This document shows positions 4,064 through 31,066 of a stretch of 34,086 nt of DNA, piece after piece (position 1 is the stretch's first letter; the number at the start of each line of letters is the position of its first letter). The translations under genes and the position numbers were made by a program. The DNA comes from Candidatus Methanophagales archaeon (GTDB lineage: Archaea; Halobacteriota; Syntropharchaeia; Alkanophagales; Methanospirareceae): positions 1 through 34,086 of the forward strand of contig JAPWVK010000159.1 of assembly GCA_029241965.1 (NCBI GenBank). Reading direction: 5' to 3'. The notes under the pieces are model-generated. The model was not told the origin of the DNA. It saw nothing but the letters and a program-made list of their open reading frames with translations, and did not search any database.

Positions 4064-5977
<1,914 letters not shown>

Positions 5978-6444: not shown

Positions 6445-6696
6445 ATGGAGATAGAATTTCCATATGTGGAAGAGGAAAGCAGTGTGTTGGAGACAGTAAA
6501 GAGGCCCCGCATCAAGAGGGATGCTCTTTCGGAACTGGTAAGCGATTGGGTTACTATAGATGAGGTTTTGGTGGATACCGGTGCTGATTTCTGTGTGCTG
6601 CCAAAGTATATCGGTGAGACACTGGTTAAGGACATAACAACCGGCAATTTACCTCTTACGAAAATACCCCTTTCAGCCCAGTACTGTCCACCATGA
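6445..6696 (+). pseudogene. truncated retropepsin-like (clan AA) aspartic protease homolog
   Basis: 83 aa with the DTGA active-site motif (VLVDTGADFCVLPKYIGETLVKDITTG). It is paralogous to 21699..22136 but lacks the C-terminal half and overlaps the 3' end of the convergent gene 6656..7603. Confidence 0.45.
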
Positions 6697-7603
6697 TCAT
6701 ATTCAACCGTACCACTAACGCGAAAGAGAGCCCGAGGACCTCCCCGTTTGGTATGCCAAGCAGGAGGAACATCACCGCCGTTGTGCCTTCCATTAGCCCC
6801 AATCCCGACACTGTTACAGGCACGAACCTGAGAAGGGTAATCAAAGGATGCAGAAGGAAATAAGTCAAAAAGCTTAATTCGGTGATGCCCAGCGATAAAC
6901 CAATGAGCTGCCATTGAAGCGCCAGAAGTATCCAGCAGATGAAATATATAATGAGGATAACAGGAAGGCTATCCCGAATCGAAAGACTCTTATCCTTCAT
7001 ATTCTGAAAATCGTCCTTGAATTTCTTGATGTATGGTATCTTAGCGAGTAGATTGCTCGATAACGATTCATCTGTCCACAATATCCAGAGCATAACCACA
7101 CCCAAGCCACCAAAAATACAGCCGCCTATACACAATGATACCAGCACATTTGTGCTTATATTCACAGAAACCGCAGTGATAAAGAATATTAAGCCGAGGA
7201 AGCCGCCTACGACTTTCAAAACGAACTCTATACCCTGCGGTGCCAGAATTGCTGCCATACCGTGGGAAATACTGCAATTTGTACGATTCTTCAAGAAATA
7301 CGGTACAAGAAAAAACCCAGACCTGCCTGGCGTAACATCCGAGGCTATCATACCAGCAATGTGTGCAAAGAACGAATGCGTGAAACTAACCTTATTGCCC
7401 ATCGTACCCAGCAGGTAGTAAAGACGATACGCCATAATGAGGTTGTAGCAGAGATAGGAAATAGCTGCGGCTACGAATAATAAAATGTTTACACCTCTTA
7501 TCGCTGCTAACACCTCATGGATGTCTATCTTATAAAACAGAAGTGCGAGTATCGTTATTCCTATAAATACCTGGACGAATCTTCTTTTATTGTTCATAAA
7601 CAT
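6656..7603 (-). CDS. polytopic membrane protein, flippase-like / UPF0104 (lysyl-PG synthase TM-region) family
   Basis: 315 aa with about 8 hydrophobic helices. The N-terminal pattern KRRFVQVFIGITILALLFYKIDIHEVLAAI is typical of this family. The family assignment is from memory of the architecture only. Confidence 0.55.
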   Translation of the reverse strand: MFMNNKRRFVQVFIGITILALLFYKIDIHEVLAAIRGVNILLFVAAAISYLCYNLIMAYRLYYLLGTMGNKVSFTHSFFAHIAGMIASDVTPGRSGFFLVPYFLKNRTNCSISHGMAAILAPQGIEFVLKVVGGFLGLIFFITAVSVNISTNVLVSLCIGGCIFGGLGVVMLWILWTDESLSSNLLAKIPYIKKFKDDFQNMKDKSLSIRDSLPVILIIYFICWILLALQWQLIGLSLGITELSFLTYFLLHPLITLLRFVPVTVSGLGLMEGTTAVMFLLLGIPNGEVLGLSFALVVRLNMIMVDSTGLKGVFS

Positions 7604-16979: not shown

Positions 16980-17783
16980 CTATTTCCTCTTTACGTAGTA
17001 ATAAAAACCTACAATGCCAATTATAACCAAAGCGACAATTAGAATGATTAAGAGTTTGTACGTTTGTTTTGGCGACACAGGCGCAGGAGTAATTGTTACC
17101 GTGGGTGCAGGTGTTGCAGTTATTGTTTGTTTAGTCAATGCAGGAGTTACTGCGGGCGCATCAGAACCAGGATAGGAATGTTGGTCATTCGGATCGGTTC
17201 CTACAAACGTCTCATCTATGTCGCGATAACCGTCTCCATCTGCGTCCGTTTCTCCGCCCGCGCCACTCCGATTATATGGTGGTGTGGTAGTCACTACGTA
17301 TAACAGCCCATTTCTTGCGGCTGACGTTCCGAAATTGCCCTCGGGATCCGACAATTCGATATCACTCAGCGTCATATGGCTATAATTTATCGAATCAGAT
17401 GTTCTTTCCACGCTAAAGTTGAGCAAAGCAATTGAACCACTTGACCCATTTGATATGGCATATGCAAAAGGACCAGCGAGTGAAACACGAGTCCCCCCCT
17501 CAAAATCGTTGTTAAACCCTAAAACATTCCATTCCAACGTTAGTTCCCCTCTTAAAACGTTTGTAACGTTTATGACTCGCTTGTCATAAGCTATATTAAA
17601 TACAATAGCTTGAACCGGCCCGTTTTTTACTGTTGTTATATTTACTGGCACGATTACATGTGTTCCCTGCACTCCACTTGCATCTACCAGACCAAAACCA
17701 TCGGCACTTGGCTGTGCAGATACGGGTATCAGTGCTATTACCAAACACATGCCTATTCCATACGCTAACGTTTTAATATTCAT
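16980..17783 (-). CDS. cohesin-domain surface protein with Ca-binding TSP3-like repeat, Thr/Pro linker and C-terminal TM anchor
   Basis: The signal peptide is MNIKTLAYGIGMCLVIALIPVSA; the start is set at 17783 rather than 17822. The cohesin-like domain has GTHVIVPVNITTVKNGPVQAIVFNIAYDKRVINVTNV...GSIALLNFSV...LSDIELSDPEGN. It also has a DADGDGYRDIDETFVGTDPND repeat. The C-terminal anchor is LLIILIVALVIIGIVGFYYYVKRK. Confidence 0.75.
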   Translation of the reverse strand: MNIKTLAYGIGMCLVIALIPVSAQPSADGFGLVDASGVQGTHVIVPVNITTVKNGPVQAIVFNIAYDKRVINVTNVLRGELTLEWNVLGFNNDFEGGTRVSLAGPFAYAISNGSSGSIALLNFSVERTSDSINYSHMTLSDIELSDPEGNFGTSAARNGLLYVVTTTPPYNRSGAGGETDADGDGYRDIDETFVGTDPNDQHSYPGSDAPAVTPALTKQTITATPAPTVTITPAPVSPKQTYKLLIILIVALVIIGIVGFYYYVKRK

Positions 17784-17794
17784 TTCTTTCTCCG

Positions 17795-18661
17795 TTATAC
17801 AACCCTTATTGCAGGAACCCAATCATCGTATATCTCCCCGTTTGCGTCCGTGAATTTGGTGCAGGTAATTTCTCCGCCTGTTACGTTTATTCTATGTTCG
17901 TGTACTATCTGCGGATATGATCCTGTTTTTATTGTATAGTTGTACTTTTTACCTTCTCTTAATTTAAATGTATTCGTGAAATTTATGTTTTGATACTCGT
18001 CATTGTAACCGTTCCATGAGGCACTTTCATTCACGCCATGCCCCTGAATCCAAACGTATTCGGTATGCCCGCCTGTGCCTTCACAGGAATACGTATAGAG
18101 TGTATGCACGGTAATATCAGCATTCGGCGTAATCGTTCCTATGTGTATGCCGGAGATGGAGGGATAGGTGCCTGGGCCCGTATGGAATATTGTTTTTTCG
18201 AGCACATTTACTGAGATCGGAATCCTAAGGCCAGAATATTCATTTCCACCAATATTTGTATCCTGAAATTGAATATACATCCTTCTCTCATCGGAATGCC
18301 CTACTTCGCATGCGCTTCCCGACGTTGCGCCATATAATCCTGGTTCGGCATTCTTTGGTATCTTGATTGTAACAGTAAAAGTTTTTATTTCTCCACTCTT
18401 GATCGTGTACTTCTCTGGTTCGACTCTGATCCATGATGTAATGTTAATCAATTCTTCATCATCTTTCTCTACATGCTCGTAATATACGGACCAATATCCA
18501 GTTCTCTCAGTAGGTATTGTCCCCACTAGTGTGATATTTTGATTTAATGTATCACCCGGACAGCCTTCCCAGTTGCACATAGAGCGGCAATCAACCGATG
18601 TCGCGGATGCCGCCGGAACGCACAACAGTGCAATCAACATTATCAGTATTATTTTCTTCAT
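17795..18661 (-). CDS. secreted surface protein: N-terminal Ig-like domain (paralog of 30464..31722 proteins) fused to a conserved C-terminal beta domain shared with 18800..19729
   Basis: 288 aa with a signal peptide. The N-terminal half aligns with 30464..31066 and 31063..31722 (CxxEGxxGD...TSWIxVxPExYTIKxGE...PGLYGATS...GHSxERRxYI). The C-terminal ~130 aa (YPSISGIHIGTITPNADITVHTLYTYSCEGTGGHTEYVWIQGHG...) is near-identical to the C-terminus of 18800..19729. Confidence 0.75.
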   Translation of the reverse strand: MKKIILIMLIALLCVPAASATSVDCRSMCNWEGCPGDTLNQNITLVGTIPTERTGYWSVYYEHVEKDDEELINITSWIRVEPEKYTIKSGEIKTFTVTIKIPKNAEPGLYGATSGSACEVGHSDERRMYIQFQDTNIGGNEYSGLRIPISVNVLEKTIFHTGPGTYPSISGIHIGTITPNADITVHTLYTYSCEGTGGHTEYVWIQGHGVNESASWNGYNDEYQNINFTNTFKLREGKKYNYTIKTGSYPQIVHEHRINVTGGEITCTKFTDANGEIYDDWVPAIRVV

Positions 18662-18799
18662 AATTACCTGTACTATTTTCGTATTAAAAGTACTTTATTA
18701 ATTTCATGCTCTTTGGTGTTTCCTTTGGCGCTATTACCAAACACAGCGCACTAATGCTTAATCCATACGCTAACGTTTTAATATTCATTTCTTTCTCCG

Positions 18800-19729
18800 T
18801 TATACAAACCTTATTGCAGGAACCCAATCATCGTATATCTCCCCGTTTGCGTCCGTGAATTTGGTGCAGGTGATTTCTCCGCCTGTTACGTTTTTGCTAT
18901 GTTCGTGTACTATCTGCGGATATGATCCTGTTTTTATTGTATAGTTGTACTTTTTACCTTCTACTAATATAAATGTATTCTCGAATTCTATGTTTTGATA
19001 ATCGTCATTGTAACCGTCCCATGAGGCACTTTCATTCACGCCATGCCCCTGAATCCAGACGTATTTGGTATGCCCGCCTGTGCCTTCACAGGAATACGTA
19101 TAGAGTGTATGCACGGTAATATCAGCATTCGGCGTAATCGTTCCAATGTGTATGCCGGAGATAGAGGGATAGGAGCCCTGACCCGTATCGAATAAAGTTC
19201 CGGTAGTATAAAACGTCCCGTTCTTCACTGGTGCTGGTCCTTCGTTACCAGACGGATCCGACAATTGAATATCACTCAGGTTCATGTCAGTTTTATATGG
19301 TGCACCGCCTATGACGCGGAAGTTAAGAAGGACGACAGAACCACTTGAGCCATTCAGTATGGCATGAGCGGATGGTCCTGAGAGTAAAACACGGGTACCC
19401 CATGCAAAGTTGTTGTTAAAGCCTAAATTGCCCCAATTAGACGTTAGAGTACCTCTTGAAACGCCTGTAACGTTTATAACCGTCTTGTCATACGCTATGT
19501 TGAATACAATGCCTAAAATCGGACCGCTGCTTGTATTTGTAATGTTTACCGGCACGGTTACATAAGTCCCTATAAGCCCATTGGCATCGTCAACACCGAA
19601 ATTATCTGCGGTGGGCGCCGCCAGAGCCGTTAACTCAAATATAGCAAATACCGTTAACAACCCGAATATAGCTAAACCCCCTCTCAGTCCTATTAAGCCT
19701 CTTCGTTTCCTCGATGCGGTTTTTTTCAT
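18800..19729 (-). CDS. cohesin-domain surface protein fused to the shared C-terminal beta domain
   Basis: 309 aa. It has a signal/TM segment and a cohesin-like domain (GTYVTVPVNITNTSSGPILGIVFNIAYDKTVINVTGV...GSVVLLNFRV...LSDIQLSDPSGN). The EGTGGHTKYVWIQGHG domain follows. Confidence 0.75.
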   Translation of the reverse strand: MKKTASRKRRGLIGLRGGLAIFGLLTVFAIFELTALAAPTADNFGVDDANGLIGTYVTVPVNITNTSSGPILGIVFNIAYDKTVINVTGVSRGTLTSNWGNLGFNNNFAWGTRVLLSGPSAHAILNGSSGSVVLLNFRVIGGAPYKTDMNLSDIQLSDPSGNEGPAPVKNGTFYTTGTLFDTGQGSYPSISGIHIGTITPNADITVHTLYTYSCEGTGGHTKYVWIQGHGVNESASWDGYNDDYQNIEFENTFILVEGKKYNYTIKTGSYPQIVHEHSKNVTGGEITCTKFTDANGEIYDDWVPAIRFV

Positions 19730-20810: not shown

Positions 20811-21084
20811 TTTTCTGGCTTCGGGGCAAAAATATATCTTTCCCCCCCTTTTTTCTAACCGCTTATCCCTTTCGCTTTTATTCTATATGCACTGTACCAT
20901 ATATAAAGTTGTATGTGGAGTGTTCCCTATATAAAGCTATACCTATGTGGAAACTATGGTGTGTGAACAGGCAGAAGCACAGGAGAATATGCGAATACGC
21001 TCTTTCGGTTGCAATAAAGTCCAATTTGGGTAATCTGTGCGATCCGTAGTTGACTATTATCCAGAGCACATTCGTCTCGCTTCA

Positions 21085-21714
21085 TCATGTCAATATGATT
21101 TCGCCCAATACCGCCCGGTTCATCAACACTAAATCGCCGGCATCTGCTATCCTATCGTTATGGTTCAAGTCCCACCGCCAATCTCCCGGTATTTCCCATA
21201 ACACCGCTCGGTTCATCAACACTAAATCGCCGGCATCTGCTGACTTCCCCTCATTGTTCAAATCGCCTACCAGCCAAAGCGATAGATTCGTGGTCTCATT
21301 GGCAGTTGCATTTACTTCAGTTGAGTTATCCCAATACCTTGTTTTCGAGGCGTTTACGTAATAATCGCCGGCATTAACGTTTGTAAAGTTGTAATAGCCC
21401 GTTCCGTTCGTGTGTGTTGAACTTACGACATTCATAGTGGTCGCGTTCGTCAAATTTACCGATACATTTGGCATCCCGATAGTAGTATTATTACTATATG
21501 TTATCTGCCCTGTTATAATTACGGGTGCGGGCAGCACCGTTACGTACTGTACTGCAGCAAACACGAGTGAGGGAAGCAGCGCTAATACCACTAAAATCAA
21601 TATGATCATCTCCTTCTTTCTATTACTCTGTTCCATCTTTTTAAATGCTCTTTTTTTGTTAGAATTTGCTTCAAAATCCAAAGCCGCACTAATCGCATTC
21701 ATTCTTCCCAGCAT
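21085..21714 (-). CDS. dockerin-containing secreted protein with a CarboxypepD_reg-like beta-sandwich domain
   Basis: The C-terminus carries a duplicated dockerin segment: GDLNNEGKSADAGDLVLMNRAVLWEI and WDLNHNDRIADAGDLVLMNRAVLGEI. The DNA duplication is visible at 21100-21250. The middle region GQITYSNNT...TNGTGYYNFTNVNAGDYYVNASK resembles a carboxypeptidase-regulatory-like fold. The internal Met at 21636 gives a cleaner signal peptide (MEQSNRKKEMIILILVVLALLPSLVFA). Confidence 0.75.
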   Translation of the reverse strand: MLGRMNAISAALDFEANSNKKRAFKKMEQSNRKKEMIILILVVLALLPSLVFAAVQYVTVLPAPVIITGQITYSNNTTIGMPNVSVNLTNATTMNVVSSTHTNGTGYYNFTNVNAGDYYVNASKTRYWDNSTEVNATANETTNLSLWLVGDLNNEGKSADAGDLVLMNRAVLWEIPGDWRWDLNHNDRIADAGDLVLMNRAVLGEIILT

Positions 21715-22136
21715 AGTTTAACCTTCTCCCCCTTTAAAAAGTTAGCATCGAAGAGGTCTAAACCATTGACCCTGCCTAAGATTGGCGGAACATCATTTGA
21801 ATCTGAAATTGCCACTGGTAACTCGAATTCTTTACCGTTGAGTCTAAATTTGAGTTGGTGAATGTAAACGATTAGTTTTGCGTACGGAACAATCCCTCTT
21901 GTGACATCTTCAATTAATAAGTCGCCGACATCTCTTGGTAGGACCGATATATCAGCACCAGTATCTGCTAATGCATTCTCTATTTTTATCCATTCTAAAG
22001 TATCGCCTTTTATTTCAACTTCAATCAGAGGTCTTAATACCTTCCCAAAAATTCCACTTTCTTTTTCCGTGTACTCAAAAACTTTCTCGGGCATTTGAAC
22101 ACCTAAGCTATTAAAATTCCTGCTGGTGGCTCCCAT
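21699..22136 (-). CDS. retropepsin-like (clan AA) aspartic protease
   Basis: 145 aa with an ALADTGADISVLP active-site motif and a C-terminal ILGRVNGLD flap/dimer-type segment. It is a full-length paralog of the truncated 6445..6696. Confidence 0.65.
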   Translation of the reverse strand: MGATSRNFNSLGVQMPEKVFEYTEKESGIFGKVLRPLIEVEIKGDTLEWIKIENALADTGADISVLPRDVGDLLIEDVTRGIVPYAKLIVYIHQLKFRLNGKEFELPVAISDSNDVPPILGRVNGLDLFDANFLKGEKVKLCWEE

Positions 22137-22258
22137 CTAATAGATAATTTTTTGTTGGGATATTTCACCTTTGCTCGTTTCCACATCTCTTTTAAATTCC
22201 TACCTTCTAAAATTGGTTTTCCATCAGCCAATACAAAGTATTCATACATTTTTTCCAT
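22103..22258 (-). CDS. small (51 aa) ORF upstream of and overlapping the retropepsin-like gene (DUF5678-like pattern)
   Basis: Hand translation gives MEKMYEYFVLADGKPILEGRNLKEMWKRAKVKYPNKKLSIRWEPPAGILIA, with ATG at 22258 and TAG at 22103-22105. It is below the 60-aa cutoff of the ORF track. It overlaps the downstream start by 34 nt. The family assignment is from memory. Confidence 0.35.
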   Translation of the reverse strand: MEKMYEYFVLADGKPILEGRNLKEMWKRAKVKYPNKKLSIRWEPPAGILIA

Positions 22259-22343
22259 TTTTCATCACCCCATAATTTATTTCTTCTTTATTCTTTTTAT
22301 AATTTTCACTATTCTTCTTCTCGCTCAATCAAGCGTTATATTG

Positions 22344-23801
22344 TTATACCGCTTCTCCCAACACCGACACCGTGGATGTGTCCGTTCCCGACCCTTTCAG
22401 CTCGTATGCCAGATACAAGTCATTGTAAGTTCCTACGGATACTGTTACCCCTGTATCTTTATAGCTACCCCATGACTTTAGAGTAGTCCAGCTACTGACC
22501 GCCCAGGGGCTCGTGTCATCTACGGTTACATTACAGAAATGAACCGGATAACTCTCTATGGCTGAAGACGTATTTGCATCCCTGACGAAGCATGCTAGCG
22601 TTATTGTCTCCCCTACGGTGTAACTATTTTCGTCAGGAGGCAAATCCCATGTTACGTTTGACCAGCCCCACTTAACCACCGACTCATTCTGATAAGAGCT
22701 GTTAGAATTAGATGCATTGTCATAAGTTGTTTCGGTAATATTGTATTCTCCGTCCTCAGGGACGGACAAAGTAACGACAAAAGTTCCATTTGTGGCGTTT
22801 GTAGTTGAATTGACTATCTTTCCTTCGTAAGGCACTTTGTCTATTTTCTTGATGATTACAGGTTTATTATTCTCATCAAGGGCGACCAAAATTCTTCCAT
22901 CCGAAATCTTCTGGTAGATGTTTTCTATCCTTATAAGAGAGAATTTATTTATATACCCGTTGCCAATATTATCAGTGGTGGTAGAAATGTCGGAAGTCGA
23001 AATCAGGTTTAAAGTTCCCACGGGATTGAAGGAAGAGATGGAAGAGCTTCCGGGAATGGAAGAGATGGTTGTAGAATTCATAAGGCTGAAGATTTTCGAG
23101 CATGAATTGAAGAAGTCTAAGGAATTACAGAGGTTCATATTTGAGTCGTTGTCCGCAAAGAGCAAATTGACGCTGGCAGATGCTATTGAACTTGGGGCGA
23201 AAATGAAGGAAGGAATGCTTGAAGAGCTCAAAGAGAAGGGATTACTGTAGATGAGACTGGTTGTGGATGCAAATGAGCTGTTCGCGGGGATAATCGCTAA
23301 AGGTAAGGAATTACAGAGTTGGACGCTGGACATATTATTTTCAGATGAAGTTGAATTGTTCGCACCTTTCATATTGCTTGCCGAATTGGAGAAGAACAGG
23401 GATGAGATAAGGGAAAAGTCAGGATTTTCCCTGAGGGATTTTGATGTGTTCGTTGGCATCCTCAAGTTAAGAGTCGGATTTATCCCTCTGGAGCGGTTTT
23501 TAGCTAAGATTCCGGAGGCTAAGGAGTTGGCACCGCATTTAAAAGATGTCGAATATTTCGCATAAGCATTGAAACTTGATTGCCCAATCTGGACGCAAGA
23601 AAAAGCGTTCAAAAAACAATCTGTAGTCAAGGTGTTCTCAACTCTTGATTTGTTTTCGTTTTTATCCGAGACAGGCCCATAGCCCGCTAAAGAGGTTGAA
23701 GGATATTTTGGATTGACTGAAGTGTAAACCTTATGCTCTGGCGAAAACGTCAGAACTGTTTCGTATCTACTCAAATCCATAAATCTTATTTTTTGCTTCA
23801 T
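22344..23801 (-). CDS. orphan 3' fragment: decayed Hint unit (no Cys1, truncated block F/G) fused to a shortened copy of the giant protein's C-terminal domain; probably a remnant or silent cassette
   Basis: Its ATG overlaps the giant gene's stop (ATGA at 23798-23801). The N-terminus KQKIRFMDLSRYETVLTFSPEHKVY aligns with QKPIKYLEYDY...LLVSPEHKVY. The middle ~230 aa is a Ser-rich translation antisense to TA cassette c. The C-terminal ~190 aa aligns with the giant protein's C-terminus. The last ~100 nt are about 90% identical by eye to 23798-23895. Confidence 0.55.
   Translation of the reverse strand: MKQKIRFMDLSRYETVLTFSPEHKVYTSVNPKYPSTSLAGYGPVSDKNENKSRVENTLTTDCFLNAFSCVQIGQSSFNAYAKYSTSFKCGANSLASGILAKNRSRGINPTLNLRMPTNTSKSLRENPDFSLISSLFFSNSASNMKGANNSTSSENNMSSVQLCNSLPLAIIPANSSFASTTSLIYSNPFSLSSSSIPSFIFAPSSIASASVNLLFADNDSNMNLCNSLDFFNSCSKIFSLMNSTTISSIPGSSSISSFNPVGTLNLISTSDISTTTDNIGNGYINKFSLIRIENIYQKISDGRILVALDENNKPVIIKKIDKVPYEGKIVNSTTNATNGTFVVTLSVPEDGEYNITETTYDNASNSNSSYQNESVVKWGWSNVTWDLPPDENSYTVGETITLACFVRDANTSSAIESYPVHFCNVTVDDTSPWAVSSWTTLKSWGSYKDTGVTVSVGTYNDLYLAYELKGSGTDTSTVSVLGEAV
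22987..23250 (+). CDS. small antitoxin-like protein, cassette c (antisense inside 22344..23801)
   Basis: Starts MSEVEIRFKVPTGLKEEMEEL and ends ...GAKMKEGMLEELKEKGLL. Layout and length match the antitoxins of cassettes a and b. Its stop abuts the PIN start (TAG-ATG). An AT-rich TATA-like ATTTATTTATATA lies about 35-45 nt upstream. Confidence 0.6.
   Translation: MSEVEIRFKVPTGLKEEMEELPGMEEMVVEFIRLKIFEHELKKSKELQRFIFESLSAKSKLTLADAIELGAKMKEGMLEELKEKGLL
23251..23682 (+). pseudogene. PIN-domain (VapC-like) toxin, cassette c, interrupted by an in-frame TAA at 23563-23565
   Basis: Starts MRLVVDANELFAGII.... It reads ...APHLKDVEYFA-stop-ALKLDCPIWTQEKAF...SETGP, compared with cassette b ...SPDPNDVDFFALALKLNCPLWSEDKLL...SLISP. 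The stop replaces a Leu (TTA to TAA). Homology continues in frame to TAG at 23680-23682. Confidence 0.6.
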
Positions 23802-26800
23802 ACCGCTTCTCCCAACACCGACACCGTGGATGTGCCCGTTCCCGACCCTTTCAGCTCGTATGCCAGATACAAGTCTTTGTGTGTTCCTTTGGATACTCTT
23901 ACCCCTGTATCTTTATAGCTACCCCAAGATTTTAGACTAATCCAGCTACCAACAGCCCCGGGGCTCGTGTCATTTGCGGTTACGTTAAACTTCTCGTCAT
24001 TTATTATTGTTGACCAACCGTTCACCTCTTCTACCTTCAGCCAGATCTTGTATTCAGTCGAAGAAGAAGGATTGTAAATTGTAACTACTGGTGAGTTACT
24101 GGTCACATTTTGCGGGTTGCCGCTGCCGTCCGCATTATTGTGTGGGTCAACTACTGTGGCACCAGTTGCACCCGAGAAGTTAATGGAACTGATACTCTGC
24201 GAAGCAGTTTGATTTCTGATTTCAAGTGTCGTTGCGTATGACAACTCTATGGATGTATTGGCTTCATCATCCGCAGTGACGTTATAAAACAGCGTGGCAT
24301 TATCCGTGATATTACATTTTGGATAGTACCATCCTACTGCCACGCCTGATGTATCCCAATCCAGGACGGCATATCCGCTGCTATTCGTGTAATTCAGACC
24401 AAGGTATGTCACGGTAGAGTCAGTCTTGTTATAAAAACGAACCGGATAATTCTCTATGCCCGATGAGGTATTGACATCGCGGACAAGGCATGTTAGCGTT
24501 ATTATCGCACCTGATTCGTAACTACTTCCGCCGGAAGGCGAGCCCCACGTTACGTTTGACCAACCCATCTTAAACACCGATTGATTTTGATACGAGATAT
24601 TATAATTCGATGCGTTATCATACATCTCTACCGACACGTTGTATTTCCCCTTAGCAGCACTTGAATTTAGATAAAAACTCGCATTTACATACGAATTTGG
24701 TGTGTAAGCAGTATCCGACGACGAATTGATGGTCGCAGTAGCGTTGTATATCGTGACCGTGTAGTTCTTTGGATTATCCTCCGTGTACGAGAAGTTGACA
24801 TAAAACTGCTCGCCGCCCTTCTTGTAGATTGGAACGGAAGTTGTAGGCACGTCTATCGTGATAGTCGGTGATTGCGAATCTATGGTGAAGTTCGTACCGA
24901 GCCACGTCTCTGACGTCTCGCCCTCATCGTCTGTTGCCACGCAATGCAACGTATAGAGTCCGGGACTATAATTGGATGCGTTGAACGCTATATCGGCAAT
25001 CCCGCCAGCGGCATCCGCTTCGGTAAAAGTATTGTTTACTATCGAAATAAATGTCTGGTTCGGATAGCACAAAGTCAGATTATGAACCACTGTGCCGCCG
25101 TCCGGATCGGTCGCAACCCCAACACCAATATCGAATATACCGTCATAGCTACCATTCATATCATAGTCCTTTACACCACTGATATTGAAATACCTAATGT
25201 GCGGGACGGTAGGTGGATAGTGCACCAATCTGATGTCGTTTGTAAGCAGCGTTGAATTGCTCCAACTACCCGATGCGTTTGCTGCATACAGCTTCATCTG
25301 GTGCTGCATACCACTTTTAGAGTAGTCGAAAAATAACTTCGGCGTCCATGCCGCCTGCAAAAATGACGAGCCATCATTGGTACTCGTCCATGCAACGTTT
25401 GTTTGCGCAAACGATATGTTCATACCGCTCGTACCATCTACATACGCCAGGCGGTACTCATTGCTTGTAGCTGTCGGAGATCGGAAGTATATGTATCCAT
25501 GCGGTGTTGTGTTTACGTCAGAACCTATAACCCTGCTATTGTTCACACCAATCGTAAAGGTCACGAACGAACTGTTGTACGGCTCGTACGTGTAATCATC
25601 TACTGTTGTGCCAGTGTACGAAGTCAAGTAAGTATAATATGGACTTTCGAGTGGCTTACCGCCAGTGATGTTATACGAGTCGTTTAGGTAGTAAATATCA
25701 AGATTGTTCGATGCTCCCAGATCGGTTGCCTCGAAAGCGATATGTATTTTATAGTCCGAAGAACCTTTAATTGCTTCAGTGTCCCAGAACTTGACCAGAG
25801 CAGCACGGTATCCTGTTGAGCCCTGTTTATAGATGTCATAATATTTGCTAATCTCTTTCTGCATCCGCGTCCTATCTAAGTAATACATGTTCTCAAATAC
25901 AGTATTCTCAACCGTGCCATTCCAGTGCACATACGAGTGCGTGTCATTTACCTTTTGGATAGTAAGCCGGGAAGTGTTTTCATCCGCGCCCGCCCATTTC
26001 CAGACGTTGCCCTCTGTGATGGTGGCATTATCCTCAAAGTTCAAGCGCTGTATTGTAGCATTCCGGTTATCGGCACGTAGAATCTGCTCGTTGCATAAAG
26101 CCCATACCGCAGATTTGTTGTTGCTCGGAACACGGAGTGACCAGTTATAACTATCGAGCACCGAGTCCCAGAGCGTCCAGACGAGCGATACGCTGCTGTT
26201 ATTGAGTGTATGTGTAGCATCCGTAGTAACCAACCAGGTTACGTTGAATGCACCGGTCGAGTTCTCGTAAATCGTAGCCGGCTCCTGCGAGATGAGTTCA
26301 AATGTCGGACAGCCCGCCTGATTGTATGCATAATCGACGTCACCACCAAATCGAAACTCTAATGCGTGTTTGCCCGAAGTTAAAACCTTACTTGTTTCGT
26401 AGCTGGTTTCGTTACAGGAATAATTGTGTATGAATAAGGAATTGTTTCGCCATTGATAATCCAGTGTGCGATTGCCGCATTTCAGGGCAAGCAATTGCAG
26501 GTCATAGTTTGAGTTGCCGCACCAGACAGGCGTTGAGTTTTTACGCCGTATTAAAAGTATGCGGTTCGGGACGGTAACAGAGTAAATCTTGCCGTTATAA
26601 GGGACTTCTTCGATTTTTTTTACTGCTACGGGATTCTGTTCGGAATCGAGGAATACTAACTGTTTGTCGGGTAGCTCGTGGAGTTCCGAGATTTTTAGCA
26701 ATGAATAGGTATTTAAACCGTTCGGATTTATAGTATTAGTGATGACGGTTTCTTTTTCATTCACGGTCACAGGCATCGAGAAGTTATTTAAATACAGCAA

Positions 26801-29800
26801 GTTAGTTTTATTATTGGTGAGAGAAATGGCCGAAATAGTTGTTAAGGTTCCAGAGGATATTGGTATAGAGCTTGGTAGGGTTTCAGAAGAGAATTGGCAA
26901 TTGTTATTCTCAAGATTCCTGAGAAGAGAGCTGGAAGAAATAAGAGGGATCGAAGCGATAGTATCTAAATCAAAACTAACAGAGGAGCAAGCCAAAGAAT
27001 TAGCAGATGAAGTAAGTTTAGCGATAGCTAAAAGACTTCTTGAGAAGTGATTCGAGATGTTATTGGTAGTTGACGCTAATGTCGTATTCTCAGCACTAAT
27101 AAGAAGAGGCAAGCCATTAAGGGTATTTGAGTTGAACAAGCTTCTCATGAAATTTGAATTTATTGCACCAGAGTTCCTGTTCTTTGAGGTGGGTAAAAGA
27201 ATGGATAAAATACTCAAGCTCACAGATTTATCTAAAGAAGAGTTCATAACGGTTTTTTCATTCATTAAGAATGAACTCGAGCTAATTCCTCTTGAAACAT
27301 TTGAAGATAAAGTTGATGAAGCCAAGGAGAGATCACCACACTTGAAGGATATGCCATATGTTGCTTTATCCCTCAAATTCGATTGTAAGATTCTGTCTGG
27401 AGATAAAGGAATAAAGGAATGCTTGCCTGGTAGAGTCATCATACCATCTAAAGCCTTAAGAATTCTATTTGGGAGGACTGCACCATAAACCTTATGCTCA
27501 GGCGAAACCAGCAGTTGACTGCCATCTTCCAGAGTAAGCTCGAACATCGCATCCGAATAGTCGTATTCCAGATATTTAATCGGTTTCTGATTGCAAAAAA
27601 GTTTTGTGTGTTCTTTTGTAATTTGTGGTTTCCTTGTGGTTTCGTTATGCCGTTTCACCAGCACGATGTCGTTCGGGACGTCAACGTCATAAATCTTGCC
27701 GGTATAAGGGACTTCTTCGATTTTTTTTACTGCTACGGGATTCAGCTCGGAGTCAAGGAATACTAACTGTTTGTCTGATAGCTTGTCATAGAGTTCCGAT
27801 ATTTTTAGCAATGAATAAGTATTTAAATACAGCAAGCCAGTCTTATAATTAGGGGCGATAGAAATGTCAGAGTTAGTTGTTGAGGTTCCAGGATTGCTTA
27901 GAGGAGAGGTTGGTAAGCTAGAGCGAGAGATAGAGGAGCTAATATCGTGGGAGGAGAAGCGTAAATTACTCTCTCTGTTCATGGATGAGGTTATGAAAGA
28001 TGCTAAACAGTTGAGCGAAGACGAACTGGTTACACTTGGAAGAGAGATTAAGAAAGGCAGGTTTGAAAAGCTCAAGCAAAGGGGGTTTGTATGAGTGCGG
28101 TTAGTTGCTGACACAACCGAACTCTTCTCGTTCTTCAACGCTCGGTCAAAGGCAAGGGAGTTATCCATAATCCCTGAATTGGAATTACATTCCCCCTCCT
28201 TTTCTTTATATGAACTCAAAGAACATAAATCCAAGATTCTTACGAGTTTCTCGTTGACCGAGACACAGTTTCTATTGATAATGAAGTTGCTTAAGACCGT
28301 TGTAAAAGTTGCTAAAGAGGAAGAATACTCGGATTTTCTATCGGAGGCTAAGGAAATATCTCCAGACCCTAACGATGTAGATTTCTTTGCGTTGGCTCTG
28401 AAACTGAACTGTCCGCTTTGGTCAGAGGATAAGCTGCTAAAGGGGCAGTCTAAGGTTAAGGTACTCTCTACAAAAGATTTACTTGAACTTTTATCTCTCA
28501 TCAGCCCATAAACCTTATGCTCAGGCGAAACCAGCAGTTTACTGCCATCCGCCAGAGTAAGCTTGAACATCGCATCCGAATAGTCGTATTCCAGATATTT
28601 AATCGGTTTCTGCCATTCCTGCTCTCCCGTCTCCTGGTTTAAAGTCAGAACTTCTTCTTCTGGTTCTAAATCTTTGAACAGTTTCCAGCCTTCTTTTGTT
28701 AGAACCTCGGTTTCTTCGTCGTAACATTCGTACGGTTGGTTAGTCCAGGTCGTCCCGTTAACCGCGGTTATAGTCAAATCCGCAGTTCCTTCCGTCTCGA
28801 ACTTGACAGACCAGTTTCCACCTACTGCTGGATAAGACTGGACATTAATTATACTAATCGGATCAACAGCAACATACCAGGGTCTTGCCTCTGTAAATGT
28901 TTCTGAATCATAACTAATTTCCGCAGTACCTAAAGCGTACAAATAAGGCCACACAGGAGGAACTGCGTAAGAATAACTGACAGATGTTTTCTTGCCAATT
29001 AAATCTTTATTCCAGGTTATTGTCTTTGTATCGTCTTCCTGCATAACCGTAGCGGCATCCGTTGAATACACATCGAACTCAGCAGGCACAAATTCTTTTA
29101 ACGTTACGGATTCCGCATCAGTAAAGCATTCTACGTCAATCCTGACCTCAAACCTGTCCTGCAGTGTGGGGTCTATCTTGCTTTGTGTCGTTCTTATGAT
29201 GTCGAATTCATACTCCGGCTGAACCCGGAAATACGTATTGAAGAATACTTCAACGTTGTCAATTAAACCCGTGACTGAGATCGAGTGATTACCCTCTATT
29301 TCCGTTGGGTAATCCAGGTTATAAATGCCAGATTCGCTACTTGCGGTAATCGTGCCATCAGCGGTGGAATAAATCGTTTCCTCGTTATCGGGATTGTTTA
29401 CGGTTAAATAAAGATCGGCATTGCTGACTGAGTGCCCTGCTTTATCCAGGACAACGATAACGAATTCCACGGTTTCACCGGGTTTGTAGATGCTTTTTTT
29501 GGTGTTTACGGAAACAAGGCCCCACGGGAATTCGGATTCTAAAACGTAAACGTGCTCGTCCTTCACTAACTCCACACTTAATGTATATACGCCCACTCGG
29601 AATGCTCGTTCCTTAGGCAATTTAATTGCGAATTTGCCTTCGCCTTTTTTCGCTATTTCGGGCGCGATGTCTGTTAGTGCACCCGAAGAATCATAAACAA
29701 AAGTCTCTATCGTTTCGTTTTCTGTCACCCAGCGTTTCAATGCTTTTTGGGGTGCGCCAATAGCAGCTTCCTCACTTACAGTGCTAAGCATTTCCCGCGA

Positions 29801-30460
29801 TGCGTTTTCGGTAACATTTTCATTAAAAGTTTTCTGCGAAGCGTTTTTGATAAAACTTTTATTAAAAGTTTTATATTCAAACGAAAAAGTCGGTTCCTCA
29901 TCCAGGGAATAAGACTCTTTGTTTGCAATTAGTTTTGGCGGTTCAATCACGGATTCCGTAACATTAATATTACGTGATTCACCTGTTGATTCGTTAATCG
30001 TATAATTCAAACCGATGACGGAGGTATTATCAGTTGCATTTTCCGGTGTTTGTATCGTAACGCCCGAGGCATTACCTGTTGTATTATCCGTTGTATTTTC
30101 CGGTGTTTGTAACGTAACGCCCGAGGCATTACCTGTTGTACTATTATTAGTTGCAGTTTCAGGTGTTTGTATCGTAATGCCCGTGGCATTATCAGTTGTG
30201 TTATCAGTTACATTATCAGGTGATAGTATCGGATTTATCGGTGCCGTTACGTCCGTAATATTTTCTGACGGGGTATCATTAAGGTTAGTTACGTATGATG
30301 TAATGTTTTCAGGCAGCGTTGTGTTCTCGTTTTGTGTTGCACCAAAAGCGATTAAAGGCACGATAAGCAAAGCTATGACAATTGTAATGCGTGCGCTCTT
30401 CCAGTTTGTTTTTGCTCTTAGCATCTTTTCGCAGGTCAAGCTTCCTTTTCTATCATACAT
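23798..30460 (-). CDS. giant (2220 aa) secreted, sequon-rich surface protein interrupted by a composite Hint/intein region
   Basis: Single uninterrupted ORF. The N-terminal hydrophobic signal/anchor is ARITIVIALLIVPLIAFGA. It has three tandem ~19-aa repeats (GNASGVTxQTPENxTDNT) and very many N-x-S/T sequons. It is beta-rich throughout. The intein blocks lie at aa 579-1308. It is tightly packed with upstream genes: 3-nt gap, then an ATGA overlap. Confidence 0.85.
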   Translation of the reverse strand: MYDRKGSLTCEKMLRAKTNWKSARITIVIALLIVPLIAFGATQNENTTLPENITSYVTNLNDTPSENITDVTAPINPILSPDNVTDNTTDNATGITIQTPETATNNSTTGNASGVTLQTPENTTDNTTGNASGVTIQTPENATDNTSVIGLNYTINESTGESRNINVTESVIEPPKLIANKESYSLDEEPTFSFEYKTFNKSFIKNASQKTFNENVTENASREMLSTVSEEAAIGAPQKALKRWVTENETIETFVYDSSGALTDIAPEIAKKGEGKFAIKLPKERAFRVGVYTLSVELVKDEHVYVLESEFPWGLVSVNTKKSIYKPGETVEFVIVVLDKAGHSVSNADLYLTVNNPDNEETIYSTADGTITASSESGIYNLDYPTEIEGNHSISVTGLIDNVEVFFNTYFRVQPEYEFDIIRTTQSKIDPTLQDRFEVRIDVECFTDAESVTLKEFVPAEFDVYSTDAATVMQEDDTKTITWNKDLIGKKTSVSYSYAVPPVWPYLYALGTAEISYDSETFTEARPWYVAVDPISIINVQSYPAVGGNWSVKFETEGTADLTITAVNGTTWTNQPYECYDEETEVLTKEGWKLFKDLEPEEEVLTLNQETGEQEWQKPIKYLEYDYSDAMFKLTLADGSKLLVSPEHKVYGLMRDKSSSKSFVESTLTLDCPFSSLSSDQSGQFSFRANAKKSTSLGSGDISLASDRKSEYSSSLATFTTVLSNFIINRNCVSVNEKLVRILDLCSLSSYKEKEGECNSNSGIMDNSLAFDRALKNEKSSVVSATNRTHTNPLCLSFSNLPFLISLPSVTSSSSLNCLASFITSSMNRESNLRFSSHDISSSISRSSLPTSPLSNPGTSTTNSDISIAPNYKTGLLYLNTYSLLKISELYDKLSDKQLVFLDSELNPVAVKKIEEVPYTGKIYDVDVPNDIVLVKRHNETTRKPQITKEHTKLFCNQKPIKYLEYDYSDAMFELTLEDGSQLLVSPEHKVYGAVLPNRILKALDGMMTLPGKHSFIPLSPDRILQSNLRDKATYGISFKCGDLSLASSTLSSNVSRGISSSSFLMNEKTVMNSSLDKSVSLSILSILLPTSKNRNSGAINSNFMRSLFNSNTLNGLPLLISAENTTLASTTNNISNHFSRSLLAIAKLTSSANSLACSSVSFDLDTIASIPLISSSSLLRNLENNNCQFSSETLPSSIPISSGTLTTISAISLTNNKTNLLYLNNFSMPVTVNEKETVITNTINPNGLNTYSLLKISELHELPDKQLVFLDSEQNPVAVKKIEEVPYNGKIYSVTVPNRILLIRRKNSTPVWCGNSNYDLQLLALKCGNRTLDYQWRNNSLFIHNYSCNETSYETSKVLTSGKHALEFRFGGDVDYAYNQAGCPTFELISQEPATIYENSTGAFNVTWLVTTDATHTLNNSSVSLVWTLWDSVLDSYNWSLRVPSNNKSAVWALCNEQILRADNRNATIQRLNFEDNATITEGNVWKWAGADENTSRLTIQKVNDTHSYVHWNGTVENTVFENMYYLDRTRMQKEISKYYDIYKQGSTGYRAALVKFWDTEAIKGSSDYKIHIAFEATDLGASNNLDIYYLNDSYNITGGKPLESPYYTYLTSYTGTTVDDYTYEPYNSSFVTFTIGVNNSRVIGSDVNTTPHGYIYFRSPTATSNEYRLAYVDGTSGMNISFAQTNVAWTSTNDGSSFLQAAWTPKLFFDYSKSGMQHQMKLYAANASGSWSNSTLLTNDIRLVHYPPTVPHIRYFNISGVKDYDMNGSYDGIFDIGVGVATDPDGGTVVHNLTLCYPNQTFISIVNNTFTEADAAGGIADIAFNASNYSPGLYTLHCVATDDEGETSETWLGTNFTIDSQSPTITIDVPTTSVPIYKKGGEQFYVNFSYTEDNPKNYTVTIYNATATINSSSDTAYTPNSYVNASFYLNSSAAKGKYNVSVEMYDNASNYNISYQNQSVFKMGWSNVTWGSPSGGSSYESGAIITLTCLVRDVNTSSGIENYPVRFYNKTDSTVTYLGLNYTNSSGYAVLDWDTSGVAVGWYYPKCNITDNATLFYNVTADDEANTSIELSYATTLEIRNQTASQSISSINFSGATGATVVDPHNNADGSGNPQNVTSNSPVVTIYNPSSSTEYKIWLKVEEVNGWSTIINDEKFNVTANDTSPGAVGSWISLKSWGSYKDTGVRVSKGTHKDLYLAYELKGSGTGTSTVSVLGEAV
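26826..27050 (+). CDS. small antitoxin-like protein, cassette a (antisense inside the giant ORF)
   Basis: Starts MAEIVVKVPEDIGIELGRV and ends ...SKSKLTEEQAKELADEVSLAIAKRLLEK. The start is set at the internal Met (26826) by analogy with cassettes b and c. TATTTAAATA at 26785-26794 and a GGTGA SD-like motif precede it. It ends 6 nt before the PIN start. Confidence 0.65.
   Translation: MAEIVVKVPEDIGIELGRVSEENWQLLFSRFLRRELEEIRGIEAIVSKSKLTEEQAKELADEVSLAIAKRLLEK
27057..27488 (+). CDS. PIN-domain (VapC-like) toxin, cassette a
   Basis: 143 aa with a PIN acidic quartet layout: LLVVDANVVFSAL (Asp), FFEVGKR (Glu), SPHLKDMPYVALSL (Asp), KILSGDKGI (Asp). Its last codons overlap, antisense, the HKVYG block-B codons of Hint unit 2. 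Confidence 0.8.
   Translation: MLLVVDANVVFSALIRRGKPLRVFELNKLLMKFEFIAPEFLFFEVGKRMDKILKLTDLSKEEFITVFSFIKNELELIPLETFEDKVDEAKERSPHLKDMPYVALSLKFDCKILSGDKGIKECLPGRVIIPSKALRILFGRTAP
27864..28094 (+). CDS. small antitoxin-like protein, cassette b (antisense inside the giant ORF)
   Basis: Starts MSELVVEVPGLLRGEVGKLEREIEEL and ends ...QLSEDELVTLGREIKKGRFEKLKQRGFV. TATTTAAATA lies at 27820-27829, about 35 nt upstream. Its stop TGA directly abuts the GTG start of the PIN gene. Confidence 0.65.
   Translation: MSELVVEVPGLLRGEVGKLEREIEELISWEEKRKLLSLFMDEVMKDAKQLSEDELVTLGREIKKGRFEKLKQRGFV
28095..28511 (+). CDS. PIN-domain (VapC-like) toxin, cassette b (GTG start)
   Basis: 138 aa: RLVADTTELFSFF (Asp), SLYELKEHK (Glu), SPDPNDVDFFALAL (Asp), PLWSEDKLL (Asp). 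The layout matches cassette a although the sequence is divergent. Its 3' end overlaps, antisense, the HKVYG codons of Hint unit 1. Confidence 0.75.
   Translation: MRLVADTTELFSFFNARSKARELSIIPELELHSPSFSLYELKEHKSKILTSFSLTETQFLLIMKLLKTVVKVAKEEEYSDFLSEAKEISPDPNDVDFFALALKLNCPLWSEDKLLKGQSKVKVLSTKDLLELLSLISP
30039..30215 (-). repeat. three tandem 57-60-nt coding repeats in the giant protein N-terminus
   Basis: The plus-strand unit is TTTTCCGGTGTTTGTATCGTAACGCCCGAGGCATTACCTGTTGTATTATCCGTTGTA, repeated at about 30039, 30096 and 30156. It encodes T(D/G)NxxG(I/V)TxQTPExxTxNx(T/S) repeats rich in sequons. Confidence 0.8.
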
Positions 30461-30463
30461 ACA

Positions 30464-31066
30464 TTATCTTTTCCTTCTCAACCACACCACAATCAATATA
30501 ATTACGATTGCCACGAGCGCAACAAGATGATTATTCTCCTTTAGTTCCCTTGTAATAAGGGTAAACGGATTTTGCACTGCTAAAACGTTTACTGATGCAG
30601 GTATCAGGAGCCCCGTATAAACTGTAGAGTCACCTGCACCTGCTGCTGCCGCCGAAGCATCCTCAAACAAGATGTATGTCCTTCTTTCACCGGAATGCCC
30701 TTCCATGCCTGCATCTTCAGAAGTGGCACCATACAATCCAGGTTTTGCATCTTTCGGTATGCTTATCCGCACTGAAAACTCCTTTTCTTCCCCTGCTTTA
30801 AGTGTGTAATCCTCAGGAATTACCTCTAGCCAGCTCGTTATGTTTGCCTTCGCCGAATCACCTTCCACCGTTTTATAAAAAGTGCGCCAGTGCCCTATCC
30901 TTTCCACTGATGTGCACTCCAGCGTGACTGGTATAGTAAGCACATCGCCTGCATATCCTTCGTTATTGCAGATGGATAACCGATTTACCGCGGTTGCTGC
31001 TACAGATGCGATAGTTACTACGAAGATGAGAACCAATATTGTTAGTGCTATTGGTATCTGCCTCAT
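30464..31066 (-). CDS. anchored surface protein (signal peptide, Ig-like/CARDB-NEW3-like domain, C-terminal TM plus RRKR tail)
   Basis: 200 aa and a paralog of 31063..31722. The shared pattern is CNxEGYAGD...TSWLEVIPEDYTLKAGEEKEF...PGLYGATSEDAGMEGHSGERRTYI...YTGLLIPASVNVL. The fold name is a guess. Confidence 0.7.
   Translation of the reverse strand: MRQIPIALTILVLIFVVTIASVAATAVNRLSICNNEGYAGDVLTIPVTLECTSVERIGHWRTFYKTVEGDSAKANITSWLEVIPEDYTLKAGEEKEFSVRISIPKDAKPGLYGATSEDAGMEGHSGERRTYILFEDASAAAAGAGDSTVYTGLLIPASVNVLAVQNPFTLITRELKENNHLVALVAIVIILIVVWLRRKR

Follow-up and report, generated by a model that had tools for sequence, protein, structure and literature searches.

Mobile inteins carry a homing endonuclease as in-frame cargo, and their hosts are conserved replication and repair enzymes. 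Toxin-antitoxin (TA) cassettes in chromosomal integron arrays lie in tandem and are separated by repeats, and addiction has been proposed to stabilize the array. The subject of this study is an open reading frame (ORF), here called ORF3, in a stretch of 34,086 nucleotides from a Candidatus Methanophagales archaeon (GenBank assembly GCA_029241965.1, contig JAPWVK010000159.1, positions 1 to 34,086; hereafter the window). ORF3 starts at the stop codon of a giant surface-protein gene, and we consider it likely to be an inert, decaying relic of a module consisting of an intein, a TA operon and a C-terminal domain that was displaced behind the giant gene's stop. Two described systems bear on this layout. 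Orphan toxin/immunity modules are found downstream of cdiA and rhs genes, with which they have been proposed to exchange sequence (Poole et al. 2011, PMC3150448). In the type VI secretion system of Vibrio cholerae, sequential effector displacement leaves orphan immunity arrays (Kirchberger et al. 2017, PMC5361080).

The features of ORF3 and of the giant gene that are needed below are as follows.

22344 to 23801, minus strand: ORF3, 485 codons, an open read-through across the whole module
23798 to 23813, minus strand: junction of the giant gene and ORF3, with the giant stop TGA lying inside an ATGA that also holds the ORF3 ATG (23798-23801)
23724 to 23792, minus strand: Hint N-terminal remnant IRFMDLSRYETVLTFSPEHKVY, in which block B (SPEH) is kept and block A and about 30 internal residues are gone
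23251 to 23682, plus strand: PIN_2 toxin pseudogene (cassette c), with a TAA at 23563-23565 that leaves 104 of 143 amino acids
22987 to 23250, plus strand: antitoxin gene (87 amino acids, MSEVEIRFKVP...), its stop abutting the PIN ATG at 23251; a longer call starts from 22918
22948 to 22955, plus strand: TATA box TTTATATA, 39 nucleotides before the antitoxin ATG; its antisense gives Y-I-N of ORF3
23789 to 23794, plus strand: T6 run CTTATTTTTTGCTT, encoding KQKI of ORF3 on the antisense strand, at the left end of the block that the metagenome contig L092 has at 97% identity
22812 to 22946, minus strand: Hint C-terminal remnant NKFSLIRIENIYQK...KKIDKVPYEGKI, stopping at the junction of an 81-nucleotide deletion (22815/22816), within block F
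22533 to 22811, minus strand: first part of the old C-domain copy, 90% identical to L092 and 76% to giant gene positions 24429-24622, ending at the unequal junction (about 22531-22533) of a net 456-nucleotide deletion
22347 to 22532, minus strand: tail, the last 62 codons, 90.4% identical to the giant tail (113/120 over the final 120 nucleotides) and about 74% to the orphan tail of L092
23801 to 23987, minus strand: giant gene tail, the paralogous partner in an exchange

The giant gene (23798-30460, minus strand) encodes a 2220-amino-acid surface protein with an MG2 domain. At the overlap it reads ...GCG GTA TGA, and ORF3 reads ATG AAG CAA. A 485-amino-acid ORF at 22344-23801 on the minus strand that shares an ATGA with the giant gene (23798-23801) had been predicted from the sequence, and reading of the frames bore this out. 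In order, ORF3 encodes the Hint block B motif SPEHKVY, about 245 Ser-rich codons, the beginning of the Hint C half and a stretch of 156 residues that resembles the giant protein's C-terminus. The Ser-rich codons are the antisense of two genes on the plus strand, so that the predicted stop-free antisense run through an antitoxin and PIN cassette was also borne out. Recoding of TAA was ruled out, since ORF3 itself terminates with TAA. For a programmed -1 frameshift joining the giant gene to ORF3, no signal other than the overlap was seen. An exact database look-up of the full ORF3 protein gave no match, because the annotation in assembly GCA_030612635.1 does not treat ORF3 as one gene and calls only its final 181 amino acids.

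In several respects ORF3 resembles the orphan modules of cdiA and rhs loci. It is a fragmentary module 3' of a large surface or secreted gene, it begins with a 5' handle homologous to an internal region of that gene, and it has no proper 5' end. Near-identical modules occur in other contexts, here in L092 with a sharp boundary at the ATG, and multi-unit arrays are found. The cdiA and rhs orphans, however, vary an in-frame C-terminal toxin with its same-strand immunity gene, whereas in ORF3 the in-frame C-terminal piece is structural and the variable payload is an autonomous ribbon-helix-helix (RHH)/PIN operon on the opposite strand. The handle is an intein remnant and not VENN or DPxGL, and the hosts are archaea. 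The V. cholerae arrays are similar in that a new 3' module lies ahead of the old one, the protective gene is retained and the toxic partner is lost, and in that the mosaic arises by homologous recombination without specific sites. They differ in the reason for retention, which there is taken to be kin protection and here would be intracellular addiction by a type II TA operon, and in that the piece displaced here includes part of a structural gene and an intein.

The Hint part of ORF3 can be compared with two Hint units inside the giant protein, where amino acids 586-1313 (26522-28705, minus strand) form a composite insertion. Unit 1 consists of a complete Hint N half, the antisense TA cassette a and a Hint C half ending in VLVKRHN. 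Unit 2, fused behind unit 1, consists of a 5'-truncated Hint N half (from QKPIKY), the antisense TA cassette b and a Hint C half ending in LLIRRKN, followed by STPVWCGN. Between the two units, identity is 96% for the Hint N pieces (over 107 nucleotides) but 28% for the PIN cargos. An intein-free homolog of the extein junction of the giant protein is present at another archaeal locus (L035). The Pfam Intein_splicing profile matches the giant protein at amino acids 596-930, with 37.1 bits against a cutoff of 35.8.

The Hint in ORF3 is of the intein type and not a pre-toxin peptidase. As far as can be judged from the sequence, it fails three of four intein tests (block A, blocks F/G and the profile) and passes the one for block B. 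SPEH lies at 23744-23733 and SPEHKVY at 23744-23724, and the block is likewise kept in units 1 and 2 and in the related loci L001, L002 and L092. As to block A, the first aligned residue corresponds to about position 15 of unit 1, and CYDEETEVLTKEGW is absent; the RF(M/E)D(L/F) of the orphans aligns with KLFKDL of unit 1 (about intein residues 15-20), and the leading MKQ-I codons of ORF3 resemble the flank of about 20 nucleotides that follows the C-domain stop elsewhere. As to blocks F and G, the 81-nucleotide deletion took out YDVTVPNHIIMVKRDGKVVWSGNSQSL. Undeleted orphans also read R(D/E)GK at the position where units 1 and 2 have the RHN or RKN expected to end an intein. The Pfam intein and Hint profiles (PF14890, PF01079) gave no match for ORF3, for the L092 ORF, for the L001 protein P0001 or for one L002 unit, while intein matches do occur for the giant gene and for the loci L030 and L059. 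The original prediction of Hint homology that keeps SPEHKVY and ends in block F was confirmed, as KKIDKVPYEGKI breaks off there. Its placement of the ORF3 start at the QK-I point of unit 2 did not hold, since P0001 has both MKQRIRF and, 18 residues on, EWQKPEKY. As in mobile inteins, the cargo lies between Hint blocks B and F and the host ORF must read through it, but here the cargo is an opposite-strand TA operon with a predicted promoter of its own, and the hosts are variable surface proteins.

The TA operon is the only self-contained unit of the module. The truncated product of the PIN gene in cassette c was assigned to PIN_2 (PF10130) with an E value of 2e-9, and beyond the TAA its frame continues to a full-length PIN. 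Leu is found at the TAA position in cassettes a and b, in the L001 cassette and in L092, L172 and L173. The TAA was seen in three independent assemblies and is therefore not a read error. In the alignment the acidic columns D6, E and D are invariant, and the fourth acidic site (TQEK) is past the stop. All four assemblies that carry cassette c (window, L092, L172 and L173) have an intact antitoxin ORF; the RHH assignment of the antitoxin comes from a weak precomputed match to PF26688 (RHH_12), and our own Pfam scan gave no match. Cassettes a and b have a TATA box TTTAAATA at 42 and 39 nucleotides before the antitoxin ATG, respectively. The three boxes (22948-22955, 26787-26794 and 27822-27829, plus strand) have the archaeal consensus, and on the antisense strand the box gives a Y-(L/I)-N motif that recurs at the ends of the Ser-rich stretches in all host ORFs. 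The T6 run is probably the archaeal oligo-T terminator of the operon. Cassette c is 28-38% identical to cassettes a and b.

The minus and plus frames are offset, with the low coordinate of the minus codon falling on the third position of the plus codon in all three units. The TAA had been predicted to interrupt the toxin alone and to read as TTA (Leu) on the other strand. The in-frame TAA and the interruption of only the toxin stand, but with this one-base offset the T>A change yields TAT (Tyr) at codon 80 of ORF3, against AAT (Asn) in L092, L172 and unit 1. In comparison with VapBC type II operons, cassette c is similar in having a small antitoxin gene that abuts the PIN gene, in having a predicted promoter of its own, and in that the toxin decays first and the antitoxin ORF persists. 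It is different in that the toxin is of the PIN_2 family (PF10130) and is now a pseudogene, and in that the operon with its promoter is free of antisense stops inside a host ORF.

Relatives that share the module were found in several assemblies. A protein search with ORF3 returned P0001, a protein of 699 amino acids with 41% identity at 91% coverage. It is encoded at locus L001, which shows synteny with the window: gene order is the same from an upstream gene of 203 amino acids through both the N and the C part of the surface protein to the orphan and the gene after it. The main gene of L001 encodes an intein-free surface protein of 1025 amino acids that ends in ...STISVLGEVA and a stop, followed by the ATGA overlap. 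The orphan behind it is a 699-amino-acid ORF starting MKQRIRF..., and it holds an intact antisense antitoxin and PIN pair, a Hint C half and a full second C-domain. The junction sequence of the window, GGTATGAAGCAAAAAATAAGATTT, matches that of L001, GGCATGAAGCAAAGAATAAGATTT, and the equivalent junction is present in L001 (GAGGTGGCATGAAG), in L002 (GGAGGTGGTATGATG) and in L172 and L173.

The ANME-1 contig L002 carries at least six tandem units that share the junction and differ in their cargos. The scaffold of about 310 nucleotides consists of INNFSLL, the last approximately 55 C-domain codons, the junction and a Hint N remnant, with 82-92% mutual identity among the units. The cargos that lie between the scaffolds, on the other strand, are unrelated to one another and comprise several RHH and PIN_2 pairs, a pair of a DUF433-like and a PIN-like gene, and a RelE-like gene. 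The units border on each other either by VLGEVV and a stop with the ATGA overlap, or by a 14-nucleotide deletion that fuses the frames. The cargos at 1210-1762 and 6497-6775 (plus strand) of this contig are not PIN_2; they are also open on the antisense strand and have the same scaffold flanks. In contrast to the attC sites of integron arrays, the repeats here are coding pieces of about 310 nucleotides made of a C-domain end and a Hint remnant. No integrase ORF was noticed in L002 or in the window, though no search aimed at one was made.

The contig L092 came from a metagenome scan. Its positions 1232-2218 correspond to window positions 23801-22815 with 97.1% identity over 987 nucleotides. The homology begins precisely at the ATG of ORF3, and the sequence upstream differs, consisting of another Hint and TA unit, a stop and a spacer. 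The L092 ORF of 678 amino acids contains an intact 143-amino-acid PIN on the opposite strand, Hint blocks F/G (GKIYDVTVPNHIIMVKRDGKVVWSGNSQSL) and a complete C-domain. The contigs L172 and L173 are collinear with window positions 24826-22155 at about 91% identity and have the same junction, both deletions of the window copy, and Leu in place of the TAA. An intact PIN gene is thus present in relatives, as the 143-amino-acid version in L092 and also in the L001 cassette. The idea that the ORF might be an independent, conserved full-length gene in relatives holds in part: longer ORFs exist (678 and 699 amino acids), but both begin inside Hint and are without the catalytic ends.

The features of the module recur in L001, L002, L092 and L172/L173, assemblies that are 9-40% divergent elsewhere, and both deletions recur in L172/L173. 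The shared junction, Hint N truncation and deletions argue that the module was inherited or exchanged and was not made in this genome. The block of Hint remnant and TA genes is 97-98% identical between the window and L092 or L172, and the adjacent main gene is about 13% different. Between the window and L172 the synonymous divergence (dS) of the main gene is 0.39, compared to 0.03-0.13 for the Hint-remnant/TA block. This contrast suggests either that the module was exchanged laterally not long ago or that the main gene underwent allelic replacement. Contigs from ENA and Logan match the window at 100% identity and end at a 188-nucleotide repeat, and they carry no information on switching of the 3' end.

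Compared to L092, the window copy has three lesions. The in-frame 81-nucleotide deletion at 22815/22816 removed Hint blocks F/G, a net deletion of 456 nucleotides joined ...HFYN to KFNVT... by microhomology with the loss of most of the terminal domain, and a nonsense change replaced Leu by a stop in the PIN gene. By this comparison of sequences, the window copy derives from an L092-like full module by two deletions and a nonsense mutation. As it has neither block A nor blocks F/G and has lost most of the terminal domain, ORF3 is predicted to be unable to yield a working protein. The PIN gene is also broken in both sister contigs, in each case at the equivalent of window positions 23373-23400 (approximately), by a 28-nucleotide deletion in L172 and a 22-nucleotide duplication in L173. 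The same toxin has therefore three different lesions in three assemblies, and the frame of cassette c is intact only in L092.

The sister indels also break the equivalent of ORF3, leaving calls of 134 and 225 amino acids, and these frameshifts mean that continuity of the ORF is not conserved. The frame of ORF3 probably survived in the window because the stop-free cassette was inherited and the toxin was lost by substitution, whereas the frames of the sister copies were lost because their toxin fell to indels. At the affected positions (L172 about 5720-5760, L173 about 4640-4700) these otherwise near-identical contigs from one study have different indels, which may represent a hotspot or an assembly artifact. 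Among the 29 differences between the window and L092, the synonymous and nonsynonymous counts are 5/24 in the ORF3 frame, 4/10 in the PIN gene and 0/4 in the antitoxin gene, and these patterns give no sign of purifying selection. For ORF3 against P0001, the ratio of nonsynonymous to synonymous divergence (dN/dS) shows saturation in the antisense parts and an intermediate value of about 0.56 in the Hint C half and the C-domain, and is not decisive.

The C-terminal part of ORF3 matches the giant gene in two nucleotide segments. Positions 22346-22533 match 23800-23987 at 90.4% (E 1e-71), and positions 22531-22724 match 24429-24622 at 76.3% (E 6e-37), with the second giant segment located 442 nucleotides further upstream. 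The nucleotide homology of the orphan to the giant gene is therefore far above chance. The orphan had been described as a copy of the giant protein's last approximately 190 amino acids, and this description needs correction, as it corresponds instead to about amino acids 1938-2220 of the giant protein without amino acids 2014-2158. The terminal domain is about 145 amino acids long (LEIRNQT...VLGE); ORF3 retains only the final 62 of these residues, together with half of the Ig-like domain before them. The borders of this domain were taken from stand-alone or shuffled copies, in L001 at 37-591 (behind a signal peptide) and in P0005 (behind a LamG protein). An AlphaFold2 model of the last 321 amino acids of the giant protein, built from a 7-row alignment, had a predicted confidence (pLDDT) of 43 and was not used for the domain borders.

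Within a genome, the tails of the main gene and the orphan are 90.4% identical in the window and in L172, and 80.2% identical in L001. Between genomes, the identity of the tails is 60-67% for the window and L001 and 86-89% for the window and L172. Along the C-domain the best match of ORF3 moves from L092 (95%) to the giant gene (113/120 nucleotides), and at the protein level the ORF3 tail shares 92% identity with that of the main gene in a related strain (P0002). These identities show that the orphan tail was exchanged with, or patched from, the main-gene tail.

The relic would then have arisen from a module of three parts. The first would be an intein-type Hint without its first approximately 14 residues. 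The second would be a type II TA operon on the opposite strand (TATA box, RHH-like antitoxin, PIN_2 toxin and oligo-T run), which would occupy the usual slot of the homing endonuclease, and the third would be the C-terminal domain of the surface protein, in an old copy. A second C-domain end, with its stop and about 20 nucleotides of 3' flank, would have come to precede the intein-bearing 3' end. After the death of the toxin, here and independently in sister populations, the rest of the module would erode.

Several observations weigh against this explanation or leave it less specific. A tandem duplication, a circular piece that inserted, or a tandem paralog that lost its 5' end would each fit the origin of the junction. 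Retention of the displaced segment would be explained by addiction, in that loss of the TA operon would kill the cell, and this step we infer. L172 and L173 have their indels at one and the same position, and these may be artifacts of assembly. Between the window and L172 the PIN frame has 7 synonymous and 4 nonsynonymous differences, and thus mostly synonymous ones, and the ratio of nonsynonymous to synonymous change (omega) in the ORF3 frame is 0.2-0.4, both on small counts. This suggests that the decay is recent and that the neutral signal comes from few sites. Both deletions in the window are multiples of three, and the longer orphans (678 and 699 amino acids) are open in two diverged genomes; together these could reflect some selection for an open frame. 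Finally, the arrangement of the ATGA and the Shine-Dalgarno (SD)-like sequence may allow coupled translation of ORF3, with no sign that a product is used.

An unlikely alternative is that ORF3 is an unexpressed alternative 3' end, which could be swapped into the giant gene through Hint or C-domain homology and thereby vary the surface protein. A silent C-terminal cassette of this kind had been proposed in the original prediction, and parts of the proposal hold. ORF3 lies directly 3' of the main gene, and its first part is homologous to a conserved region inside that gene, as in the orphan modules described by Poole et al. (PMC3150448). The tails of the orphan and the main gene have exchanged sequence, that of ORF3 resembles the related strain's main-gene tail (P0002, 92% protein identity), and a 97%-identical module is present in a different context in L092. 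However, the product of a swap would be non-functional, consisting of an intein without blocks F/G and a terminal domain without the first approximately 83 of its approximately 145 residues. The ORF is frameshifted in L172/L173, the main gene of L001 has no Hint for recombination, and no recombinant variant was found in the identical contigs of other samples, which end at the 188-nucleotide repeat. In the arrays, the part that varies is the antisense TA cargo, and the C-domain piece is the conserved scaffold. The variable payload is therefore an opposite-strand TA operon and not a C-terminal cassette, and the Hint is of the intein type.

It is more doubtful still that ORF3 is translated to a purpose, either to avoid polarity into the downstream cohesin and dockerin genes by ATGA and SD-like coupling, or because the product has a role. 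The SD-like GGGAG (23809-23813, minus strand) and the ATGA are conserved in the window, L001, L002 and L172/L173, the genes around ORF3 are all co-directional and of the surface-protein type, both deletions are in frame, and the 14-nucleotide deletion in L002 fuses successive units instead of breaking the frame. But the codons of the SD-like motif are those of the final L-G-E of the C-domain. The motif is thus the conserved domain C-terminus LGE(V/A), and terminal copies not followed by an ORF have it too. The frame is broken in L172/L173, and the differences from L092 are 5 synonymous and 24 nonsynonymous. ORF3 has no signal peptide and no intact domain, and Pfam gave only a weak match to Big_13.

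The remaining suggestion, also raised in the original prediction, that ORF3 is one-off local debris of an unequal crossover between Hint units in this genome, is very improbable: there are three Hint units in 7 kb, and the Hint N pieces of units 1 and 2 (96% over 107 nucleotides) would be good recombination substrates, but L001, L002, L092 and L172/L173 contradict it, as the junction and the N-truncation, along with both deletions, are shared with assemblies 9-40% different elsewhere, the left edge joins a C-domain flank to Hint and not Hint to Hint, cassettes a and b resemble cassette c at no more than 28-38% identity, and at the nucleotide level unit 3 shares only a stretch of about 43 nucleotides with units 1 and 2.

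The reading of ORF3 as a relic of a displaced module raises the question of why the antisense frame of the cassette is open. In the cassette phase, an antisense stop requires NNY followed by TAN, or NNT followed by CAN, on the TA strand. No antisense stop is present in any of the six TA genes, and synonymous shuffles of them were stop-free in 16-100% of trials per gene. The shuffles are often stop-free because few Tyr, His and Gln residues occur in the TA proteins. The openness of one cassette alone is therefore weak evidence, and stronger evidence comes from the bimodality among 80 loci together with in-frame continuity of the flanks. This survey of PIN_2 covered 80 archaeal loci in ANME-1, Methanosarcinales, Thermoplasmatales and DPANN genomes. 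Thirty-two of the 80 loci are without an antisense stop over the whole PIN, all in one phase, and 26 of these 32 lie within stop-free stretches of 230 to >2800 amino acids. In the non-open class, the upstream 330 nucleotides were open in only 1 of 44 loci.

In three cases a single Intein_splicing match spans the cargo: in the giant protein (596-930), in L030 from Nanoarchaeota (1204-1600) and in L059 from Methanosarcinales (903-1970). The cassettes therefore probably evolved inside translated inteins. The L030 protein has a canonical intein (C...TSNHP...AHN followed by T, with a full Pfam match) around one cassette, and L059 has an intein of 1068 amino acids with several cassettes. The cassettes in L003 (a subtilase/DUF2341 protein) and L035 (a LamG protein) have no detectable surrounding intein. 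L012 is another of the antisense-open loci among L002-L081. Across units, the identity of the cargo (28% at the amino acid level) is uncoupled from that of the scaffold (82-96% at the nucleotide level).

From these observations we put forward a wider interpretation, which is tentative and has somewhat less than an even chance of being correct. ORF3 could be a dead member of a selfish class, that is, of type II TA operons that from promoter to terminator are free of stops in one antisense phase and reside in translated host genes, are exchanged between sites through their Hint flanks, and form post-stop arrays kept by addiction. Their residence sites would be, within inteins, the position of the endonuclease and, within giant archaeal surface proteins, the linkers, with the host genes left unbroken. 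In the full-text literature, of which the coverage was incomplete, no description was found of TA operons antisense in inteins or of such post-stop arrays, and this absence is not proof. An intein with an opposite-strand TA cargo that is displaced, arrayed and decays toxin first appears to be an undescribed type of module.

Taken alone, ORF3 is an ordinary relic. Taken with L001, L002, L092 and L172/L173, it documents the birth, the spread and the toxin-first decay of a module. If the wider interpretation is correct, it would link two classes of selfish elements, and addiction could replace homing in the maintenance of inteins. It would also represent a natural case of long antisense co-coding under selection. 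Furthermore, it would account for Ser-rich 'hypothetical proteins' read from the wrong strand in archaeal metagenomes. P0004, P0007 and P0008, metagenome proteins of 270-707 amino acids, are mostly the Ser-rich antisense translation of TA cassettes, and they are wrong-strand or host-frame readings of nested TA operons. For annotation, the warning would be that either the host ORF or the nested TA operon is routinely lost, as with ORF3, which was cut to a 181-amino-acid call.

Several other features of the region were observed. An Rfam scan of 21000-31000 gave nothing at the gathering score. The cluster around ORF3 encodes cohesin and CarboxypepD_reg-like proteins according to Pfam, and a dockerin-like protein was recognized by eye in L001. 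Between ORF3 and the next surface-protein gene, at 21699-22258 on the minus strand, a 51-amino-acid ORF (with a weak precomputed DUF5678 match) overlaps a 145-amino-acid ORF, and this pair is not present in the syntenic L001. The 145-amino-acid ORF has a DTGA aspartic-protease-like motif (RVP, E 0.003). In the downstream surface-protein cluster, a repeat of 441 nucleotides with 94.6% identity is located at 17749-18189 and 18754-19194.

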